Shown: one piece after another, positions 8,271 to 48,992 of the stretch
Position numbering within the stretch: position 1 is the first letter of the stretch
Layout of the letters: every line of letters starts with the position of its first letter
Assembly: GCA_002311135.1 (NCBI GenBank)
Contig: DBZK01000020.1
Location: 16,903 to 80,902, forward strand
DNA length: 64,000 nt
Direction: 5' to 3'
DNA from: Dehalococcoidia bacterium UBA1162
GTDB taxonomy: Bacteria; Chloroflexota; Dehalococcoidia; GIF9; UBA5629
Translations under genes and position numbers: made by a program
The notes under the pieces: generated by a model
What the model was told of the DNA's origin: nothing
The model's database searches: none
The model's input: only the letters and a program-made list of their open reading frames with translations

Positions 8271-8981
8271 CTATACGCGCACTGCACCCGGTTCGATGTG
8301 TTCCATGTCAGTTGCTAATTGCTTTAAAACACCCAGGTGATATACCTTTTTCATCTCGCCCACGATCCATCTGCCTTTGGAGCAACTGACTGCGAAGGCC
8401 ATTATTTTATCGATAAATTCATCTTCGTTGTACGTCGATGTAATTATTCCGCTGGCTGCAGCCTCTTTCCCCGTGAAGCGCCTGCCGCTGAATATGATAT
8501 CCTCCACCATGTACATGGGCATAACTTGTTTCAACAACGCGGCAGTGCCGGGAACGATTGGATATCCTCTATCGACGGCCGGTATGCAGAAATATCCTCG
8601 CTGGGACAGCATAAAGCGGAAATCAAAACAGCAGCTAAGCACAGCACCTCCACCGAAAACATGGCCGTTGATAGCGGCTATGGTCAGCAGCGGATAGGTA
8701 AGCAACCTTCTGCGCAATTCGATATCCTTTGCCAGAAACCGAGTTACCGTCTCTTTATCGCCTTCCGCCAGCCGGGCGTTGATCCAATCGATGTCGAAGC
8801 CATTGGACCATACCCCGGCATGACCCGATTTTATCACCAGGGTCAGAGCATCGGTCTCTTTCTCAATCTCATCCAGCGTAGCAAGTAATGAAAGGCAAAG
8901 GTCGAGATTAAGCCGGTTATCGTCCTGGTCCAGGGTGACAACCGCAACTTTGCCATTCAACTTAAGGTCAAGCTTCGCCAA
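8271..8981 (-). CDS. Enoyl-CoA hydratase/isomerase (crotonase-fold) family protein
   Basis: Crotonase-like layout (VAVVTLDQ..., WSNGFDIDW, GHVFGGGAVL). Close paralog of 10727..11440. Confidence 0.75.
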   Translation of the reverse strand: MAKLDLKLNGKVAVVTLDQDDNRLNLDLCLSLLATLDEIEKETDALTLVIKSGHAGVWSNGFDIDWINARLAEGDKETVTRFLAKDIELRRRLLTYPLLTIAAINGHVFGGGAVLSCCFDFRFMLSQRGYFCIPAVDRGYPIVPGTAALLKQVMPMYMVEDIIFSGRRFTGKEAAASGIITSTYNEDEFIDKIMAFAVSCSKGRWIVGEMKKVYHLGVLKQLATDMEHIEPGAVRV

Positions 8982-9065: not shown

Positions 9066-10730
9066 CTACTGCAGGCGCTTAAGAGCTTCGTCCACTTCTT
9101 TTACGCTGCCGAACCCGCCGTTTTTATAGAATCTGATAACCGATCCGGTATCCAGCACAACCCATGATGGTATGGTCTTGAGCTGGCATGTAGAGGCCAG
9201 CTGGCTGGTGGGGTCAATATAAACCGGAACCGTCAATCCATATTCCTTGGCCCAGTCTATCACCTCGGATATTTTGGGGTTGCCGGTAACCAGAAACATC
9301 GTAATATCCTTCCTGGCTCCATGCTCATAGTAATCATTTAAAATGAGAGCCTGTTGCGTGCATATCCCGCACTCTGTATTTACGAAGACCAGTATGACAT
9401 TTTTACCGGCGATATCTCCGTTGGCAAAACCGGTATCATTGAGTGTTTTGAAGCTAAAATCCGGTATTCTGCAGTTGATTTTGCAGCAGATAGGTGCTGT
9501 AGCCAGAGTTGTAAAGGGCGTTGAGCCCAGCTGCGCCGATTCGCCGTATTCATTATCCGACTCTACACTGAAAAAGTAACGTATTTGCGGGTCCAGCCTG
9601 TCCAGATGGATTTTATGTTCGAAAACCATGTCGCTGTCCGACACAGTCTGGTTCTCACTGGTCTTATCCGCCGCAAAGTTGACCAAGCTATTGGCGGGTT
9701 TATTGGTGATCCAGCTTATCCAGGCGTCCGAACTAGTAATATCATAGACGTTGATATTAGTGATAGTCAGTTGACCCGGCATTACTCCGGTCTCAGCAGT
9801 GATAAAAGACCCATCTGATGAAACGGCCTCGTTGCCGCAAACGTCAACAGATTTCACGTGGTAATGATAGGTAGTCTTGGGCTGCAAATTCTGAATAACC
9901 GCACTATGGTCCGTCAGCATAGCCGCATCGTCTGTGGCTTTAAACGGATAGGCTCCCTGAGTTAAACCGTATTCCAGCAGGCTGGTAGATGGTTTGCTGG
10001 TCTTCCAGGAAATCACAGCATGGTCGTTAAACACACTGGAAGTGGTGACTGTGTCGATATACAGGGGGTGCAACTCGCAATCCTGCGCCTCGCTGAGGAC
10101 CGTTTTGATTTCATTGATGGCCAGCACCAGGCCTTCACGTCCGGGTTCAGCGTTATTCCAGCCGACTGTCCCTATTATCTCGCCGGTCTTATTTACTACC
10201 GCTCCGCCAGCTGATCCGGGGTCCAGCGCAGCATCGGCCTGGAATTCTTTGTATATATCGCGGCCCGGAAACCCCGTAATTTTACCCTGGGTAGTAACCA
10301 TGCCTTTAGAGGAAGGGAGATAAGCCGCAACTGAGACTTCGTCCCATAGCTGCACCAGGTCGGAGTCGCCCAGAGGCGCCGGTTGCAGAGCCGGGTAATT
10401 CCCTTTGATTTTTATTACGGCGATATCCCGCAAATAGTCGGTGCATAGCAGTGTTCCATCATAGCGCGGGCCGCCCGGCTTCAATTCTATTGCGATCTTG
10501 CCGCTGCCTATCCTTTGAGCGCTGGTAGCCACATAACCGGCCTTATCTACTATCACACCAGTCAAGGTGTCATTGTCTGTATAAATTCTCACAACCGAAT
10601 CCGCGACTTTACTGGAACACGAGCACAAAATAAGCGAAAAGAGCGCAAGGGCAAAGATCAAGATAACGGCAATCTTGATTTTGTGCGTTCTGGAGTTGAT
10701 TGGAGGGTTTTCTAATAACAATCGAGTCAC
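9066..10730 (-). CDS. Lipoprotein fusing a trypsin-like (S1C-like) domain with substituted catalytic residues, two FN3-like domains and a TlpA-like thioredoxin domain
   Basis: Lipobox LILC. The S1C-like block has TSAQRI where TNAHVV is expected and GSAGGA where GNSGGP is expected. Two FN3-like repeats (ISWKTSKPSTSLLEYG, ISWITNKPANSLVNF). C-terminal CGIC redox motif. The GTG start overlaps the upstream stop as GTGA. Confidence 0.8.
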   Translation of the reverse strand: MTRLLLENPPINSRTHKIKIAVILIFALALFSLILCSCSSKVADSVVRIYTDNDTLTGVIVDKAGYVATSAQRIGSGKIAIELKPGGPRYDGTLLCTDYLRDIAVIKIKGNYPALQPAPLGDSDLVQLWDEVSVAAYLPSSKGMVTTQGKITGFPGRDIYKEFQADAALDPGSAGGAVVNKTGEIIGTVGWNNAEPGREGLVLAINEIKTVLSEAQDCELHPLYIDTVTTSSVFNDHAVISWKTSKPSTSLLEYGLTQGAYPFKATDDAAMLTDHSAVIQNLQPKTTYHYHVKSVDVCGNEAVSSDGSFITAETGVMPGQLTITNINVYDITSSDAWISWITNKPANSLVNFAADKTSENQTVSDSDMVFEHKIHLDRLDPQIRYFFSVESDNEYGESAQLGSTPFTTLATAPICCKINCRIPDFSFKTLNDTGFANGDIAGKNVILVFVNTECGICTQQALILNDYYEHGARKDITMFLVTGNPKISEVIDWAKEYGLTVPVYIDPTSQLASTCQLKTIPSWVVLDTGSVIRFYKNGGFGSVKEVDEALKRLQ

Positions 10731-11440
10731 TTTATCGGCACATTGGCCGGGTCCAGATTCGGCCTTTCAACGTGGTCTATGAGGTAGCCTATGTCCTTAT
10801 ACATTACTTTTTTCATTTCGCCGATGATCCACCTGCCCTTATTCAGGCTTTTAGCGAAGGCGGTAGCCTCTTTCGAAAGCTCGTCCAGCGTGCAGGCTTT
10901 GCGTATAACGTGGAATTTCTCCAGTTCGCCGGCGGTGAAGCGTTTGCCCAAAAATTCAGCCTCCTCCACCATATGCTTGGGCAGTGCCTTTTTTATGAGT
11001 GCGTCCATATAGTGAAGGAATGGAATGTTTATATCGACCTCGGGAAAGCATAAAAAGCCGCGGTCATTGCGCATGAAGCGGAAATCATGACAACAGGCGA
11101 AGATAGCGCCGCTGGCGAAGGCATGTCCCGTTATGGCCGCCACGGTAATCATGGGGTAAAACAACATGCGCTTCATCATCTTGTCCTGCAGGTCCAGGAA
11201 CTTCTGGACATCAGGGTCCTTCCTGCCGATGGCCGGAATAAGCCAGTCCAGGTCCATGCCGTTAGACCATATCTTTTCATGAGTGGCCGTGACCACCAGC
11301 GCGTTAACATTCGTTTTCTTCTCGATGTCGTCAAGGGCGGCCAGCATCTCGTTGCAAAAGGCCAGGTTAAACCTGTTCTCGCCGACATTCATAGTAAGCA
11401 CGGCGATATTCTCATCAACTTTCCATTCAATTGAAGACAA
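10727..11440 (-). CDS. Enoyl-CoA hydratase/isomerase (crotonase-fold) family protein
   Basis: Paralog of 8271..8981 (WSNGMDLDW, GHAFASGAIF). The ORF opens at 11521, but GGAGG plus 8 nt precedes a TTG at 11440, which gives a 238-aa product matching the paralog's length. Confidence 0.75.
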   Translation of the reverse strand: MSSIEWKVDENIAVLTMNVGENRFNLAFCNEMLAALDDIEKKTNVNALVVTATHEKIWSNGMDLDWLIPAIGRKDPDVQKFLDLQDKMMKRMLFYPMITVAAITGHAFASGAIFACCHDFRFMRNDRGFLCFPEVDINIPFLHYMDALIKKALPKHMVEEAEFLGKRFTAGELEKFHVIRKACTLDELSKEATAFAKSLNKGRWIIGEMKKVMYKDIGYLIDHVERPNLDPANVPIK

Positions 11441-11626: not shown

Positions 11627-12514
11627 ATGGAAAGCGTACTCGTTATCGGCGCGGGCTTTATGGGCGGTGGAATCGCGCAGGTGGCGGCACAGAGTGGATA
11701 CAGGGTTTACCTTCAGGATGCCAGTCCCGAAGCCGTAGACAAAACCATGCAACAGATAAAGTGGTCGACCGACAAACTGGCTGCCAAGGGAAAGATCAAG
11801 GACAGCGCCAAGGCTGTGCAGGACAGGATCAGTGTAGTCAAGGACTTATCGGTTGCGGCCCAGTGCCAGTGGGTGATAGAAGCGGTCTACGAGGATGAGA
11901 ACCTCAAGAAAGGTATCTTCAAAGAGCTGGATAAAATCTGCCCAGTCGATTCAGTTCTGGCTACCAACACGTCATGCATCCCCATTACCCGCATTGCGTC
12001 CGCTACCAAACATCCCGGGCGGGTGGTCGGCATGCATTTCTTCGGCCCCGTTCCCCTCATGATGCTGGTCGAGGTTATCAAGGGCGAAAAAACAACCGAT
12101 GCGGTATTTCAGAAAAGCGTTGACTTTATCCTGTCACTCGAGCACTACCCTGTGAAGGTCAGGAAGGATATACCCAGGTTCGTTATGAACCGTATCAGCT
12201 CGGTTGCCTTCAGGGAAGCGCTCGACCTGGTAAGGAAAGGCATCGCCACAGTCGAGGACGTGGATAAAGGGATGCGCTACGGTTTTAATTGGAACATAGG
12301 GCCTTTTGAAATTGCCGATAACTCCGGGCTGGACACTTACCTGCGTGTGGGCAAGACCTTCGCCGGGTTGGAAGACGCCGGTAATCCCGCATTGTTAATT
12401 ATCATTGAAAAAATGGTCAATGCGGGGCGGCTTGGCCGCAAGGTGGGCAAAGGGTTTTACGACTATACGCCGGATGGCAAAATGATACCATTCGATGTTA
12501 CTACCCTGAAATAA
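11627..12514 (+). CDS. hbd: 3-hydroxyacyl-CoA (3-hydroxybutyryl-CoA) dehydrogenase
   Basis: N-terminal Rossmann motif VIGAGFMGGGIAQ. 295 aa with the typical HBD family layout. Confidence 0.85.
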   Translation: MESVLVIGAGFMGGGIAQVAAQSGYRVYLQDASPEAVDKTMQQIKWSTDKLAAKGKIKDSAKAVQDRISVVKDLSVAAQCQWVIEAVYEDENLKKGIFKELDKICPVDSVLATNTSCIPITRIASATKHPGRVVGMHFFGPVPLMMLVEVIKGEKTTDAVFQKSVDFILSLEHYPVKVRKDIPRFVMNRISSVAFREALDLVRKGIATVEDVDKGMRYGFNWNIGPFEIADNSGLDTYLRVGKTFAGLEDAGNPALLIIIEKMVNAGRLGRKVGKGFYDYTPDGKMIPFDVTTLK

Positions 12515-43934: not shown

Positions 43935-44393
43935 CTATTTGCGGTCGTCTAAACGCCGGTTTATTTTTTCAATTTTTTCGTTTAGATTCTCCAGATGTTG
44001 CAGAATAGTTTCAATCTCTCTTTCTGCTTCGATGTTTATTTCATAGTCCGCATTGGCTTTTTTCTCGGCGTGACGACCCTGGAGATTCTGGCCTATCATT
44101 ATCAATGGCATAAGGAAGATCTGAATCATATTGGAGATAAAAAGCCATAAGACAAAAGCAGGCAAAGGGTCAAATCTTAATGCAACAGGCGCCAATGCAT
44201 TCCAGGAAAGCCAAAAAATAGTCCATGCAAAAATAATGAAGAAAAATCCCATAGTGCCGATGCGCTCGGTGATCCAAAGTGCAATCCGGTCAAGATAAGT
44301 CAGGCTTTTCCTGTGTTCAATGTTTATGTTACGTATTTGTTTACGTAACTTCTTAAGCTCATCAAGCGAAAGCGGTGATTTTTGTTTCTCCAC
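43935..44393 (-). CDS. DUF1003 family membrane protein
   Basis: Two TM segments followed by QNLQGRHAEKKA and a coiled C-terminus. GTG start. Confidence 0.7.
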   Translation of the reverse strand: MEKQKSPLSLDELKKLRKQIRNINIEHRKSLTYLDRIALWITERIGTMGFFFIIFAWTIFWLSWNALAPVALRFDPLPAFVLWLFISNMIQIFLMPLIMIGQNLQGRHAEKKANADYEINIEAEREIETILQHLENLNEKIEKINRRLDDRK

Positions 44394-44478
44394 TAGCTAC
44401 AGTCCATTATACATTTCGTGAAACGGATATTTGCAGCAGACAGACTGCCCAAATATCTTGGTTACGTTGTTAAAAGAG

Positions 44479-44628
44479 CTAAAATATCATCCTGAGCAGC
44501 CAGATAATTATAAGAATTACCCCTATGACAAGGGCTATGTGAATTAGCCATCCTAAAGCAGGTATTGCGATAAAACCCACGAGCCACAAAACCAGAATAA
44601 TGATACCGATGATTAATAGAATATCCAT
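44479..44628 (-). CDS. Small two-TM membrane protein (49 aa, absent from the ORF track)
   Basis: GAGGTG RBS. Product: MDILLIIGIIILVLWLVGFIAIPALGWLIHIALVIGVILIIIWLLRMIF. Confidence 0.55.
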   Translation of the reverse strand: MDILLIIGIIILVLWLVGFIAIPALGWLIHIALVIGVILIIIWLLRMIF

Positions 44629-44637
44629 AACACCTCT

Positions 44638-44675
44638 CAATATTCGATTATCTGTTAACAGATAATCGAATATTG
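44638..44675. repeat. Perfect 38-bp palindrome (19+19, centred on GTTAAC)
   Basis: CAATATTCGATTATCTGTT|AACAGATAATCGAATATTG, verified base by base. Lies between the csbD-like stop and the RBS of the next small ORF. No U-tract follows. Confidence 0.9.
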
Positions 44676-44697
44676 TAAATTTAAACTAACTAGTCTT

Positions 44698-44871
44698 CTA
44701 TTGTTTTTTTATAACTCTTTCAATCTTGCCGCTCTGTTCCTGCACTTTTCCGACTGCCTGCTGCGCATCACCTTTGATTTCCTGTGATTTATTGCCGGTT
44801 ATTTTACCGGTCTCTTCATTGACTTTGCCCTTGACCTGGTTCCATTTTCCTTTAGCAATATTGTTATCCAT
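44698..44871 (-). CDS. CsbD-like general stress protein (57 aa, absent from the ORF track)
   Basis: GGAGG RBS. Product: MDNNIAKGKWNQVKGKVNEETGKITGNKSQEIKGDAQQAVGKVQEQSGKIERVIKKQ, which fits the CsbD pattern. Confidence 0.75.
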   Translation of the reverse strand: MDNNIAKGKWNQVKGKVNEETGKITGNKSQEIKGDAQQAVGKVQEQSGKIERVIKKQ

Positions 44872-44927
44872 GTATAGTACCTCCTAAAAAACTTTATTAA
44901 ATAAATACTAGCAGAGTGAACATGTGG

Positions 44928-44968
44928 AAGTAATATAATCGAGGCACAATATGTTAAATAGTTATGAT
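44928..44968 (-). promoter_or_regulatory. Shared promoter-like motif, copy A (upstream of the csbD-like gene)
   Basis: Minus strand reads TCATAACTATTTAAC-N13-GATTATATTACT, ending about 55 nt before the start codon. Confidence 0.45.
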
Positions 44969-45096
44969 ATTGGCGGCGTTATCGGTGAATAGATTGATGA
45001 AATAGGGGATGGGCACATATTGACAGTGTCAACACAAAACAGCACAATAATATGCCAAAGCGGTATGCGGTATAAAGTTATACAAGGAGAAAAACT

Positions 45097-45225
45097 ATGC
45101 TGAACACTATCTTACTAATCCTTGGGCTGATCTGTTTCATCCTGGCGACAATTGGTATCTTTGCCAGTAGAATAAATCTAATAGCACTCGGACTAGCGTT
45201 CTGGATCTTGACACAAATTATTTAA
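45097..45225 (+). CDS. Small membrane protein (42 aa, absent from the ORF track)
   Basis: AGGAGA RBS 7 nt upstream. Product: MLNTILLILGLICFILATIGIFASRINLIALGLAFWILTQII. Confidence 0.5.
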   Translation: MLNTILLILGLICFILATIGIFASRINLIALGLAFWILTQII

Positions 45226-45379
45226 TGCCGACAAAGGAAAGGCTGGAAGTTTAGCCCCGGCCCTGTTGGTGATATCGCTATTTAATAGGGTGGTTAAGTA
45301 CCATTGGCGGTACGGCAATTGTGCAATTCCACCTGACTGACAGTCAGGTGGCCTATCTCAAGGCTTTGGGGGACTATCC

Positions 45380-45775
45380 CTACCTCTGGGGTATCACGAC
45401 ATTGGAACTAATGGTATAAGTTGTCGAAACGGAAAAAGTCTCACTAGTGCTTACTGCAGTCAATGTTACGGTCCTTGTTCCCGTGGGCGAATCTGCGGGT
45501 TCAGTATAACTACTCTCGCCAGCATTATACAAAACATTGGAGAAATAGGTTACAGTCCCTCCAGTGGCTATCGCGTTTGTAAGAGTTAACTTGGCAGGTT
45601 TGTTTACTGAGAAATGTATTATGACGGGACTACTATTAATACCGTAGACGTTATTGTCCGTCCATATGCGCGCGTCCAACTTAGCAGATCCAGAAGGTTG
45701 TACGCAGGATACGGGAATAAGAAGGACCAGAAGAAGGACAGCAAAAGCAGAGAGCCTTGCCTTTATCATGACCAC
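45380..45775 (-). CDS. Small secreted protein (131 aa) with a signal peptide
   Basis: GGAGG RBS, hydrophobic N-terminus (AFAVLLLVLLIPVSC), and a T/S-rich beta-type remainder. Confidence 0.6.
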   Translation of the reverse strand: MVMIKARLSAFAVLLLVLLIPVSCVQPSGSAKLDARIWTDNNVYGINSSPVIIHFSVNKPAKLTLTNAIATGGTVTYFSNVLYNAGESSYTEPADSPTGTRTVTLTAVSTSETFSVSTTYTISSNVVIPQR

Positions 45776-45800
45776 CTCCTATCAGAATTGGTGAAAGCGT

Positions 45801-45853
45801 AACATAGTCTTCGATATGTACGTTAATCCATAATAACAATAGAGCTAAAGTTG
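45801..45853 (+). repeat. Modular repeat family, copy R2 (partial Y + W)
   Basis: ATATGTACGTTAATCCATAATAACAATAGAGCTAAAGT is nearly identical to the W module of R3. Confidence 0.75.
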
Positions 45854-45957
45854 CTAACCTTTCTTGACCATTGACTATTTCTCTTTTAATCTTCAGACTA
45901 TGGTTATAACTGGATCAGTTGGGGGGCAGGTCAAATATCCTCTTTAGGTAAAGACTA

Positions 45958-46092
45958 TTAACTGCCGAGATGACTAAAGAATTGCGAGATTGCAGAATAG
46001 TTTATGATTACTAAGACCAGAATAATTATCACAACAATAGACAATATAATTATCCCCATAACAGATCCTACAATTCTCCCTATACATCCCAT
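45958..46092 (-). CDS. Small membrane protein (44 aa, absent from the ORF track)
   Basis: GGAG RBS. Product: MGCIGRIVGSVMGIIILSIVVIIILVLVIINYSAISQFFSHLGS. Confidence 0.45.
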   Translation of the reverse strand: MGCIGRIVGSVMGIIILSIVVIIILVLVIINYSAISQFFSHLGS

Positions 46093-46236
46093 GTTTATTA
46101 CTCCTTCTTGATTTATATTATGTATCTGTGGCGACTATTATACAAATCGCTACCAAATGACCTATTTTTACCTGATTCAAGGGTAATTCCTTATCTCTTT
46201 TATGTTGCGAGTCCCCATAATAAAAATTATCTGAAT

Positions 46237-46938
46237 TCATTTTTGCTTTACATCGAGCTTAACAACCGGTTTAATAATGACCTTATCCTGGCCGGTAACA
46301 TTAACCGATTTTTCAGCATCAAAATCGAACGTTAGCACCGTAGTCTTACCTTCAACAACGTCAAAGGAATTCACAAATTTAAGCTCACCGCTCGGGATCG
46401 TTGCTGACTCAATGGTATTGTCGGAAAAACCTACGCTTGCACTATCTATAACTAATCTTACCTGCGTATATTTCCCTGCTAGCACTTCACCTGCCGCAAA
46501 AAGCTCGTCGAGTCCCTTAATTTTGAGTAGGTCAAAAGTACTGTTCCCGGTAATATTGATTTTTATCCAGGTATCACCGCCCTGCTGCTGATTCTGCGGC
46601 CCCTGATCCTGTGCGTCGCCCTTGGTGGTATTGTCGCTGATTGGTTTATTTCCCTGGTTTTCCTGGCCAGTGCCAGTTGTATGGATTTCGATGCTTGAAA
46701 TCGTAAGCATCACACTAGTGATCTCTTTCTTTTGCGGAGGAGCATCGGTCATATGTACTTCTATATGACCTGTGCCGGCTCCGGTTGTGTAACTAGGGCT
46801 ACCTGCTGGGCCCTGAACATTGCTGCCAGTATTGCCCTGGGTCGGTTGAGCTTGCTGTCCTGAAGTACAAGCTGCCAATGGCAGTGTAAAAATACAGGCT
46901 ATGAGCAATATCGTTAATATAGACAATAATCTCTTCAT
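46237..46938 (-). CDS. DUF4382-like lipoprotein
   Basis: Lipobox LAAC. HIEVHMTDAPP...SIEIH...FDLL...GKYTQVRLVI...PSGELKF...LTFDFDAEKS matches the DUF4382 pattern. Confidence 0.65.
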   Translation of the reverse strand: MKRLLSILTILLIACIFTLPLAACTSGQQAQPTQGNTGSNVQGPAGSPSYTTGAGTGHIEVHMTDAPPQKKEITSVMLTISSIEIHTTGTGQENQGNKPISDNTTKGDAQDQGPQNQQQGGDTWIKINITGNSTFDLLKIKGLDELFAAGEVLAGKYTQVRLVIDSASVGFSDNTIESATIPSGELKFVNSFDVVEGKTTVLTFDFDAEKSVNVTGQDKVIIKPVVKLDVKQK

Positions 46939-46990
46939 CTCTTCCCCCGCATATTTATAGTTTTAAAAATAATAGCAAGATGAGAATGGA

Positions 46991-47032
46991 ATAGTGATAT
47001 AATCTGGCGTGAATTTGTTAAATAGTTATGAC
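46991..47032 (-). promoter_or_regulatory. Shared promoter-like motif, copy B (upstream of the DUF4382 lipoprotein gene)
   Basis: Minus strand reads TCATAACTATTTAAC-N13-GATTATATCACT, ending about 55 nt before the start codon. Confidence 0.45.
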
Positions 47033-47131
47033 ATTCATATGACCCCTCCGGAATAAGTTAGCAAAACCGATAGAATTTTAATTTATACTGGACTATAAAC
47101 CGGTGTTGGGTCATCTTAGCCGTAAGAATTG

Positions 47132-47273
47132 ATCACCACTGGACCAACATTGGCATGTCTATCCGGCCATGCGTACGATTATTCTGTGCCATTTTTTGTT
47201 TCAATCTAATGCTGGTCAATATCGGGCGAACATCGGTATATACGTTAATCCATAATAACAATAGAGCTAAAGT
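47132..47273 (+). repeat. Modular repeat family, copy R3 (Y-Z-X-Y-W)
   Basis: The 64-nt core differs from copy R7 at 2 positions by hand alignment. It ends with the W module. Confidence 0.85.
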
Positions 47274-47360
47274 ATCTGTTAATCTTCCAGTTTATTAACA
47301 CTCCATAAGATGGCAAAATCGGGATGTATTACTTGAAATATTAGATAATTAGCCGATTCA

Positions 47361-47777
47361 CTAAAATTTAATATAGCCATAATAACCAAGCAGGCCAATT
47401 ATCAGCAGTGTTATCCCTATAATAAGGACGATAGGTGCTATTAATGATGCAATACCCCAAAACTTCCATTTACGCTGACTTTTTCGAAACTGTTCTATGC
47501 TATCCCATTTTTTATACTGCCATGCCCATTCGTTGCCTTTTATTCCAAGAATTATCATCACAGCTATCCCAATGAGTGGGAATGGTATTAATGCAAGAAG
47601 GGAAATCCATACGCGATGACTTATACCCCAGATCCATGTCAGTGAGAAAGCTCCCCAATTCCAACCTTTAATTTCAGGGGGAACGATGGATGAGAACCCT
47701 TGCCCCGATGTATTTAGGATAGTGTCATTGATTTGAGCATTCGGTGAATTTTGCTGCATAACATCATTATATTTCAT
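47361..47777 (-). CDS. Membrane protein (DUF2628-like)
   Basis: The GWNWGAFSLTWIWG motif and three TM segments resemble DUF2628 proteins. Confidence 0.55.
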   Translation of the reverse strand: MKYNDVMQQNSPNAQINDTILNTSGQGFSSIVPPEIKGWNWGAFSLTWIWGISHRVWISLLALIPFPLIGIAVMIILGIKGNEWAWQYKKWDSIEQFRKSQRKWKFWGIASLIAPIVLIIGITLLIIGLLGYYGYIKF

Positions 47778-47939
47778 TTCTGATTTGATTATTTATATGA
47801 ACTAGATTTATCTCCCACAGAAATGAGGATTAATAATCCTGTAAATACAGAAATTGTAGCTATTTTATTTATTGTTACAGTGCATGCTAATATCTTGTAA
47901 GCAAAATATACGCCAGCAAAATTACGAACGAGGTGAAAA

Positions 47940-48992
47940 ATGATTGATCCCATTTACGAAAAGTTGCCGGGAGCACTTAACGCTCGGTCCATGGCGTACC
48001 CCGCGGTCAAATGTAAGGAGTTCTATGATCTGGTCACCTTCCTTTTCACCCCTGAAGAGGCTGCTACATTCGTCGCCATGCCGCTGGGGCTGGCTACGGT
48101 TGAGGAAATAGCTGAAAACCTCTCCATGAAGGACCTGAAGAAACTGGCAGGCCAGCTCGAGACGATGGCCGACAAAGGCCTCATCCATATACGTGATAGG
48201 AGCGGCAAGAAATTATACGAAGCACTTCCCTTCGTGCCTGGCATCACAGAGTACCAGCTCATGAGGGGCATAGTGGATGAGCGCCATAAGAAGATCGCCA
48301 CTCTTCTTAGGGATTACTCCAAGGCTATGATCAATACACTCATGTCCACCAACCCTCCTCCGATGGAGTTTCACGCTCCCGGAAAGAAGGTGGCCGTGGA
48401 TAGGGAGATCGAGCACAAATCAACCATCGTGCCATTCAAAGAGCTGAAAGATCTGATAATGGATACGGAATATATCTCGGTTGGGACCTGCATCTGCAGG
48501 CACCAGGCGGCCCTGCTGGGCAAACCGTCGGACAAGCCGGTTAACAACTGCATGGTCCTCGGAGAGTCGGCTAAATTCGCCGCCGAAAGGGGCTTCACAA
48601 CACGCCTTACCAAAGAAGAGGCAATCAAAAGGATCGAGGAAGCCGAAGATGCGGGCCTTATCCACACATTCGCCAACAGCCCGGACCTTTACTCGAACCT
48701 GCTCTGCAACTGCTACAAGGATCGCTGCATGATCATTAAGGGCGTAAGCAAATCGCCCGTCCCCAGCCTGGCCGTAAATGCAAGGTGGGTGGTCCAAATT
48801 AATGAAGATGACTGCACGGCCTGCGAGGCCTGCATCCCGCGCTGCCAGATGGACGCCCTTAAGATGGTTGAAGGCAAGCTGGTGCGGGATGAGAAACGTT
48901 GCATAGGCTGCGGCATCTGCGTGTGGACCTGCCCCGCCGATGCTATGACCCTCGAGCAGAGGCCCGCCGCAAAAATACCTCTGAAATCATAA
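47940..48992 (+). CDS. 4Fe-4S dicluster domain-containing protein
   Basis: C-terminal CTACEACIPRC and CIGCGICVWTCP ferredoxin motifs, with additional Cys motifs (CICRH, CNCYKDRC). AGGTGA RBS. Confidence 0.75.
   Translation: MIDPIYEKLPGALNARSMAYPAVKCKEFYDLVTFLFTPEEAATFVAMPLGLATVEEIAENLSMKDLKKLAGQLETMADKGLIHIRDRSGKKLYEALPFVPGITEYQLMRGIVDERHKKIATLLRDYSKAMINTLMSTNPPPMEFHAPGKKVAVDREIEHKSTIVPFKELKDLIMDTEYISVGTCICRHQAALLGKPSDKPVNNCMVLGESAKFAAERGFTTRLTKEEAIKRIEEAEDAGLIHTFANSPDLYSNLLCNCYKDRCMIIKGVSKSPVPSLAVNARWVVQINEDDCTACEACIPRCQMDALKMVEGKLVRDEKRCIGCGICVWTCPADAMTLEQRPAAKIPLKS

Follow-up and report, generated by a model that had tools for sequence, protein, structure and literature searches.

The window analyzed in this work is a 64,000-nucleotide stretch of the genome of Dehalococcoidia bacterium UBA1162 (assembly GCA_002311135.1, contig DBZK01000020.1, positions 16,903 to 80,902 of the forward strand), and the gene that concerns us here (the target gene) lies on its minus strand (9066..10730). 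From a GTG start codon it encodes a 554-residue protein in which an HtrA-like domain with a dead active site is joined to two FN3-like domains and a ResA/TlpA-like thioredoxin domain, an assignment drawn from the open reading frame, Pfam and NCBIfam searches, an AlphaFold2 model and the family of its relatives. An initial annotation had already proposed a lipoprotein of this composition, and Pfam, NCBIfam and the lipobox cysteine bear it out. Residues 1-38 (10617..10730) form the signal peptide and lipobox, L35-C-S-C38, in which a hydrophobic helix (residues 14-36 in the model) precedes Cys38, the predicted lipidation site. Of the family sequences, 43 extend over the N-terminus, and every one of them has this cysteine (consensus L-[SC]-[SGA]-C); the genome also carries two Lgt genes. 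Judging from these features, the protein is predicted to be exported and tethered to the membrane as a lipoprotein.

The head of the protein (residues 44-220; 10071..10601, with this and all following features of the gene on the minus strand) is an HtrA/S1C-fold pseudoprotease domain, recognized through alignment to solved structures in PDB, Foldseek comparison, family columns, the ratio of nonsynonymous to synonymous substitution rates (dN/dS) and a check of the codons. It is followed by a first FN3-like domain (residues 221-315; 9786..10070) that matches PF16656/PF00041, is all-beta in the model and contains an invariant, covarying Cys298 (9837-9839), by a second FN3-like domain (residues 316-410; 9501..9785) seen in the model and as a Pfam fn3 match, by a Cys-rich linker, C415-C416-K-I-N-C420 (9471..9488), and by the thioredoxin domain (9069..9470). 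The Pfam matches are Trypsin_2 at residues 57-187 (6e-17), Pur_ac_phosph_N/fn3 at 235-311 and 323-398, and Redoxin/AhpC-TSA at 419-550 (4e-13); no C-terminal PDZ domain was detected with Pfam, the two FN3 and the Redoxin domains standing in its place. By NCBIfam, the best named matches are to HtrA, DegS and DegP in the head and to ResA in the tail (1.3e-10), all far under the equivalog cut-offs. An AlphaFold2 model computed from 47 relatives, with a mean predicted local distance difference test (pLDDT) score of 83.6 and a predicted template modelling score (pTM) of 0.65, shows the head as a beta-barrel behind the signal helix, the two middle domains as all-beta and the tail as alpha/beta. Such modelling had been advised in the initial annotation, and it upholds the fold: in Foldseek the head superimposes on the protease domains of HTRA1, DegS and Helicobacter pylori HtrA with a template modelling (TM) score of ~0.8 and a root-mean-square deviation of ~3 Å. 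Both this similarity and the Trypsin_2 match identify the chymotrypsin-like two-barrel protease fold.

A word-indexed search recovered ~47 proteins that share this four-part layout at 33-97% identity, all of them from metagenomes or metagenome-assembled genomes (MAGs) labelled Dehalococcoidia or Chloroflexota, and within the order, represented by 120 genomes, only six genera (g1, g2, g4, g6, g7 and g13) of a single family have full-length copies. The loss of the catalytic triad is a trait of this family, and not a one-off. When the target head is aligned with phmmer to the solved proteases HhoA and DegS, TSAQ72RI falls on TNAHVV, RD102IAVIKI on the Asp block and PGSA174GG on PGNSGG, and the alignment is gap-free between the DAA and N anchors. 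As originally proposed, the catalytic His is replaced by Gln72 (10515-10517) and the nucleophile Ser by Ala174 (10209-10211), with Asp102 (10425-10427) retained. Across the 47-sequence family alignment the nucleophile column holds Ala in 44 sequences, Thr in two and Ser in one; the His column has drifted much more widely (Q19/H11/G4/N4/R3/K3 and others), with a non-His residue (Q, G, N, R, K, S or D) in 36 of the 47; and the catalytic Asp is kept in 42, the other five having G or N. The CxxC cysteines of the thioredoxin domain are present in all 47 relatives, and the CGIC motif reported earlier for the target is intact.

The idea that the head might still cleave through a non-canonical Ser or Thr, for which one could invoke Ser173 beside Ala174 in the clade of the window and the Thr at position 174 in two relatives, is extremely improbable. 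The ungapped alignment sets Ser173 on the Asn of GNSGG, and position 173 varies across the family (L, A, S, Q, M or T); Ser173 was therefore rejected as an alternative nucleophile. The frequent replacement of His, and of Asp in five relatives, also argues against residual proteolysis, as does the sister family discussed below, which illustrates the triad conservation encountered where activity is needed. The initial annotation had named an alternative His and Ser at the catalytic positions as an observation that would overturn it, and none is seen in the alignment. Its description of the domain as a pseudoprotease is in fact reinforced by the absence of Ser from 46 of the 47 relatives, the drifting His, the intact triad of the sister family and a dN/dS of ~0.14, and the sequence evidence strongly supports considering the N-terminal domain a true pseudoprotease.

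A tblastn search of the target against its own genome (G000) yielded a 378-residue lipoprotein, encoded outside the window on another contig (C39:64686-65822, plus strand), in which an HtrA head with an intact SNH / D / GSSGGP triad is joined directly to a CxxC thioredoxin domain, without FN3 domains. This paralogue, like several FN3-FN3-thioredoxin paralogues in the same genome, had been missed in the initial annotation. It belongs to a sister protease-thioredoxin family of ~80 clusters, found only in Dehalococcoidia and carrying no or one FN3 domain, past which the matches drop to ordinary HtrA-PDZ proteases. The members of both families are lipoproteins that combine an HtrA-like head with a CX4C linker and with a thioredoxin domain bearing CxxC, and the taxonomic range is shared; the sister family differs in keeping its triad, in having zero or one FN3 domain instead of two, and in lacking the Cys96/Cys298 and Cys416/Cys515 pairs of the target. 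At a divergence similar to that of the target family, the sister sequences retain His in 57 of 59 cases, Asp in all 59 and Ser in 58, and the difference between the two families is pronounced for both Ser (Fisher's test, p = 9e-28) and His (p = 3e-16).

Distant members with two FN3 domains, gathered from a search of species representatives and from genomes, allow the order of events to be traced. The members from g13 have an H-D-S triad (with one member, P0186, having R-D-S), those from g4 have H-D-Y, and the main clade has x-D-A. With the C39 paralogue as root, a maximum-likelihood tree places g13 at the base, followed by g4 and then by the main clade. The Ser state changes once in this tree, on a branch with 99% support in the Shimodaira-Hasegawa-like approximate likelihood ratio test (SH-aLRT), and the His state changes five times: the Ser-less clade accounts for at least four later losses, and P0186 in the basal clade adds a further change. 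Two separate losses of Ser are possible, given that g4 has Tyr and the main clade Ala. Whether Ser was lost once or twice, His is worn away only where Ser had been lost before, P0186 apart, and hence catalysis appears to have been abandoned. As a separate observation, tandem duplicates of the active protease-thioredoxin gene were noted (P0271 and P0272, on one 41-kb contig; G114:C12:16658-19004), and one of the copies reads Y-D-I instead of H-D-S; this is probably a second, independent birth of a pseudoprotease in the superfamily.

The dead domain is under purifying selection. In a codon comparison of the window against five congeners, dN/dS amounts to 0.13-0.145 for the protease head, 0.08-0.20 for the FN3 domains and 0.06-0.12 for the thioredoxin domain, values that point to a head that is still functional. 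The notion of a decaying pseudogene was discarded in view of a dN/dS of ~0.12 and of the intact reading frames in six genera. Averaged over sequence pairs, the head and the FN3 domains alike show an identity of 0.57. The strand of the old active site is among the most conserved stretches of the head (Q164, A167 and A168, then A174-G175-[SG]-A177), with A168 invariant and Q164, A167, A174, G175 and A177 at 90% or more, and the region of the L1 loop is conserved above the domain average. The motifs GSG, LGDSD and QxDAAxxPG are common to the head and to HtrA.

Conservation of the old active site bears directly on what the head may be for. One alternative is that the dead domain acts purely as a scaffold, keeping the HtrA fold in order to trimerise and to space, so that three thioredoxin domains are displayed at a set distance from the membrane, with no binding of clients and with a function no different from that of the other FN3-FN3-thioredoxin paralogues. 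HtrA protease domains do form trimers, and the genome offers additional arguments for this view. FN3-FN3-thioredoxin modules occur in at least four other paralogues of the genome, with unrelated N-terminal parts. Three of these genes stand in tandem on the contig of the window, outside the window itself (C28:291142-296664, minus strand); they encode cytoplasmic zinc-ribbon repeats, a transmembrane helix and an extracytoplasmic FN3-FN3-TlpA-like thioredoxin portion with a canonical W..CxxCxxE motif, and many genomes of the same family carry several such paralogues. The recurrence of the module behind differing heads suggests a reused extracytoplasmic chassis with interchangeable heads, among which the ex-protease might be just one. 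The cysteine pattern described next, which looks as if it stapled the head to the first FN3 domain, would also suit a scaffold. A pure scaffold, however, does not require that the active-site strand and the L1 loop be among the best-conserved parts of the head, and we regard this alternative as unlikely, if the most serious of those considered here.

Covariation also links several cysteines outside the CxxC motif. Cys96 in the head and Cys298 in the first FN3 domain are both present in every protein with two FN3 domains and both absent from every sister protein with zero or one; Cys416 and Cys515 (9186-9188) are both present in g4 and the main clade and both absent from g13 and the sister family; and a CX4C motif precedes the thioredoxin domain throughout the superfamily (C415...C420 in the target and the homologous CxxVGC in the sister family), two sister sequences having lost both of its cysteines together. 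We read these patterns, on the basis of sequence covariation, as a putative interdomain staple (Cys96/Cys298), a putative staple within the thioredoxin domain (Cys416/Cys515) and a small disulfide loop (CX4C), although each of them may stem from a single evolutionary event.

The C-terminal domain resembles known membrane-tethered thioredoxins. For residues 411-554 the best PDB matches are ResA, StoA and Etrx, the top one being the E80Q mutant of ResA, and the domain displays a thioredoxin fold with a CxxC motif (C454-G-I-C457; 9360-9371) and a cis-Pro loop in which Pro521 (9168-9170) is, like both cysteines, invariant and T519 and I520 are conserved at 90% or more. Family and sister proteins are annotated publicly as 'trypsin-like peptidase domain-containing', 'redoxin family' or 'peroxiredoxin', and the trypsin-like peptidase and peroxiredoxin labels are both misleading. 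The latter was rejected because T-E-C-G-I-C resembles the T-W-C-E-P-C of ResA (as read by eye) and not the PxxxT/SxxC setting of a peroxidatic Cys, and because ResA, StoA and Etrx, instead of a peroxiredoxin, lead the named matches. In common with ResA, TlpA, CcmG, StoA and the pneumococcal surface thioredoxins Etrx1 and Etrx2, which act in an Etrx-MsrAB route (PMC3914529), the target would be a membrane-tethered extracytoplasmic thioredoxin fold with a CxxC motif and a cis-Pro loop; it differs from them in lacking the Trp ahead of the CxxC, in carrying Gln in place of the Glu80 of ResA and in its fusion to a large non-redox head.

The redox context of the genome (2.23 Mb, 98.7% complete) narrows the possible roles of this domain. 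Two DsbD_TM/CcdA genes are present. One of them belongs to an operon (C7:20646-25319, plus strand) that encodes TrxA, CcdA, a TlpA-like lipoprotein (CIEC), a TlpA-like membrane protein (WCGPC) and a 785-residue protein; the last of these consists of a coiled-coil cytoplasmic part, a transmembrane helix, a thioredoxin-like domain devoid of CxxC, two FN3 domains and a CPAC thioredoxin domain. The second CcdA-like gene (C7:57784-61150, minus strand) is flanked by an ArsR-type regulator and a small lipoprotein on one side and by an ArsC-like phosphatase and an ACR3-type arsenite carrier on the other, which suggests a link between thiol redox and arsenic resistance at that locus. No match to PF01578, the family of CcsA, CcmC and CcmF, was found in the genome, and the classical role of ResA and CcmG in cytochrome c maturation is accordingly excluded for the target. 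An Etrx-MsrAB-type route is likewise unsupported, as no exported Msr was found, MsrB appearing to be cytoplasmic and MsrA being cut by a contig end. VKOR was not found in the genome, and DsbB was not searched for. Three canonical HtrA proteases are also encoded. The lipobox, the sequence of the domain and the CcdA pathway of the genome thus support the earlier reading of the protein as an extracytoplasmic thiol-disulfide oxidoreductase of the TlpA/ResA type.

Taken together, these observations lead us to favour, as the best explanation and a fairly likely one, a surface thiol-disulfide oxidoreductase recharged by CcdA whose ex-protease head grips client proteins. The protein would be lipid-anchored to the cytoplasmic membrane, facing outwards, with its chemistry residing in the C-terminal ResA/TlpA-type CxxC domain. 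The pseudoprotease descends from an active protease-thioredoxin lipoprotein, of a kind that survives as a paralogue in these genomes; it gained its two FN3 spacers while the triad was intact, then lost the nucleophile Ser and finally saw its His decay repeatedly. The key comparison is with HtrA, DegP and DegS. The target shares with these S1C proteases the fold of the protease domain and the conserved motifs listed above, and differs from them in having no PDZ domain, in having lost the His as well, and in being lipid-anchored and fused to FN3 and thioredoxin domains. DegP S210A is a laboratory Ser-to-Ala variant that does not cleave but keeps substrate binding, behaving as a non-cleaving chaperone or substrate trap. 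The target bears the same Ser-to-Ala change, by descent instead of by design, and this resemblance of its head to DegP S210A is the main basis for the proposed holding role. With its active-site strand (QxDAAxDP..AG[SG]A) almost unchanged, the head could represent a natural form of such a variant, binding without cutting; it would hold on to exported proteins that are unfolded or damaged, the thioredoxin tethered to it would meanwhile reduce or reshuffle their cysteines, and the CxxC motif would be recharged through the TrxA-CcdA pathway of the cell. Eukaryotic protein disulfide isomerase, which tethers a client-binding domain without redox activity to a thioredoxin domain with a catalytic CxxC, provides a functional analogy. 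Its binding domain is itself a thioredoxin fold (b') and that of the target is an ex-protease, so the two architectures are not homologous.

Several observations weigh against this proposal. The W-C-x-x-C-x-x-E signature is absent from the target, whose motif reads NTECGICTQQ, with no Trp and with an invariant Gln460 (9351-9353) that falls at the position of Glu80 in ResA, and the other TlpA-like paralogues of the genome all keep W...CxxCxxE. In ResA, Glu80 tunes the pKa of the cysteines and the recognition of apocytochrome, and the absence of Trp together with Gln at this position leaves the redox direction of the target uncertain. The CcdA operon sits on a contig other than that of the target, and for this reason the connection between the two is only inferred. 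The proposed disulfides rest on covariation, and the tree was obtained with a quick method and rooted on a long outgroup branch. Expression has some support, as a search of the contigs of one peat metatranscriptome returned two short matches (9132-9276 and 8653-8889) and none spanning the gene junctions; both, however, are contigs of low depth for which DNA carry-over is possible.

Degenerate HtrA-family domains have been put to use elsewhere in the Bacteria, and one such case inspires a further alternative. MamO, whose active site is degenerate, binds transition metals through a di-His site, promotes proteolysis by MamE and carries a TauE-like membrane domain, and pseudoproteases have arisen in three magnetotactic taxa independently of one another (PMC4794232). 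MamO and the target thus have in common a degenerate active site of the HtrA family kept for non-catalytic work. By analogy, the dead protein could be a partner or regulator of the active protease-thioredoxin paralogue, forming mixed oligomers or handing over clients in a pair that either repairs or degrades. Besides the MamO/MamE precedent, this idea draws on the distribution of the intact-triad paralogue, which is found in the target-bearing genera g1, g2, g4, g6 and g13 and nowhere else among the 120 genomes of the order. Such co-occurrence, however, is equally expected from a duplication in the ancestor of the clade. The two genes lie apart, on contigs C28 and C39, the gene neighbourhood of the C39 paralogue is uninformative, and no paralogue was found in the single g7 genome sampled, although its assembly is fragmented. 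We therefore hold a partnership of this kind to be distinctly unlikely. As for MamO itself, its di-His site, its activation of MamE and its TauE domain are not evident in the target, which scores 21.8 bits against the NCBIfam MamO model (cut-off 800) and has no TauE match. A second parallel came from Foldseek, where the top matches of the head include the S1C-like sensor domain of RsgI9 from Clostridium thermocellum, which binds cellulose (PMC12203970; PDB 7sjy). RsgI9 and the target have both turned an extracytoplasmic domain resembling S1C peptidases into what may be a binding module; RsgI9 differs in being an anti-sigma factor that binds cellulose, in its pairing with an NTF2 domain and in having no redox domain.

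A broader scheme can be put forward with due caution, since we deem it speculative and rather unlikely as a whole: the clade would run a two-armed quality control of Cys-containing surface proteins derived from one ancestral gene, in which the active HtrA-thioredoxin protein reduces and degrades damaged clients, and its dead, FN3-extended descendant holds and repairs such clients in the manner of a prokaryotic, PDI-like holdase-reductase. The ex-protease cleft would bind the clients and the CX4C linker would serve as a second redox relay. That this system should operate in the absence of cytochrome c maturation and of VKOR-type oxidants is part of the same conjecture.

Common as pseudoenzymes are, few of them have a readable history, and here a single uncultured clade has kept the full series, from a protease-thioredoxin protein without FN3 domains to one with one FN3 domain, one with two and a triad, one that has lost Ser and, lastly, forms in which His decays repeatedly, with the active sister family as a built-in control. 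The Ser-to-Ala change that biochemists introduce to convert HtrA into a substrate trap has been fixed in nature, tethered to a thioredoxin. Dead HtrA-family domains and tethered extracytoplasmic thioredoxins were both already known; in a limited search of the literature we found no description of their fusion, nor of any fusion of an HtrA-type head, active or dead, with a TlpA-type thioredoxin. Should the protein prove to be a holding reductase, it would constitute a new architecture for extracytoplasmic thiol-redox systems, and it would hint at how strictly anaerobic Dehalococcoidia from peat guard their surface proteins from oxidative episodes.

A scan of the species representatives in GTDB gave ~25 full-length loci, all of them from uncultured Dehalococcoidia of peat, fen, lake sediment and soil, and the source organism was met again in 19 metagenome runs from peat or wetland. 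The full-protein search of representatives was swamped by giant FN3-repeat proteins, and its useful distant additions were P0134 and P0186. Two MAGs show the target either joined in frame with the upstream crotonase gene or split (L030, 5281-7655; L028, 6001-7538), which probably reflects frameshift errors in the assemblies and not biology.

Immediately upstream of the target, on the same strand, lies a crotonase-fold gene of EchA3-like type (10727..11440, minus strand; 237 residues), with a TTG start behind a GGAGG, and its TGA stop overlaps the GTG start of the target as GTGA (10727-10730), exactly as the initial annotation had noted. A second crotonase-fold gene (8271..8981, minus strand; 236 residues), with a TTG start and a GAGGA ribosome-binding site, begins 84 nt past the stop of the target. 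The ECH_1 fold is recognized in both (1e-22 and 3e-21), and their closest solved relatives are short EchA3-type enoyl-CoA hydratase/isomerase proteins from mycobacteria, whose reaction is unclear; the canonical Glu pair of the hydratases looks incomplete in both, as judged by eye. The two had been called close paralogues, a description that their 40% identity does not sustain. A divergent 3-hydroxyacyl-CoA dehydrogenase gene (11627..12514, plus strand; Pfam 3HCDH_N and 3HCDH) completes with the upstream crotonase a conserved metabolic neighbourhood.

This neighbourhood raises the question of a functional tie between the target and the flanking crotonases and dehydrogenase. The upstream crotonase gene is directly upstream of the target and co-directional with it in all ~29 loci with enough flank, including those of the basal g13 and g4, the 4-nt overlap (ATGA or GTGA) recurs in several clades, and in 11 of 12 genomes of target-less sister genera the crotonase orthologue is missing too. 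Adjacency is not specific, however, because the whole 10-kb block is syntenic (GDPD, Mtase, PEMT, HlyIII, MBL, HCDH, ECH, target and LigD). Gaps of 13-31 nt, or of ~130-160 nt in one clade, replace the overlap elsewhere, and the downstream crotonase is restricted to some clades and missing in most. Moreover, the crotonases have no export signal and the target is predicted to be extracytoplasmic, and the nearest orthologue of the upstream crotonase outside the clade (54% identity) stands in a purely metabolic setting, beside carboxyltransferase and thiolase genes, without a target. We consequently judge a functional tie very improbable. The target and the upstream crotonase probably share an operon, and the crotonase most likely owes its place in that operon to descent and is not a functional partner. 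The odd arrangement of an exported protein between two crotonases, highlighted in the initial annotation, is real in the window; being limited to some clades, and set in a block that is syntenic as a whole, it loses in significance. The target is the fastest-evolving gene of the block, with 44-53% identity against 60-78% for its neighbours. A scan for promoters and terminators gave counts no higher than in shuffled sequence.

Two further observations concern the surroundings of the target. In a genome of a target-less sister genus, the MBL-fold orthologue of the block adjoins the gene of a canonical HtrA-PDZ lipoprotein whose triad is intact (L059; G006:C1:385677-386825). Within the window, the segment at 44001-48000 has a G+C content of 0.39-0.40, against ~0.50-0.55 elsewhere, and may be a horizontally acquired island.

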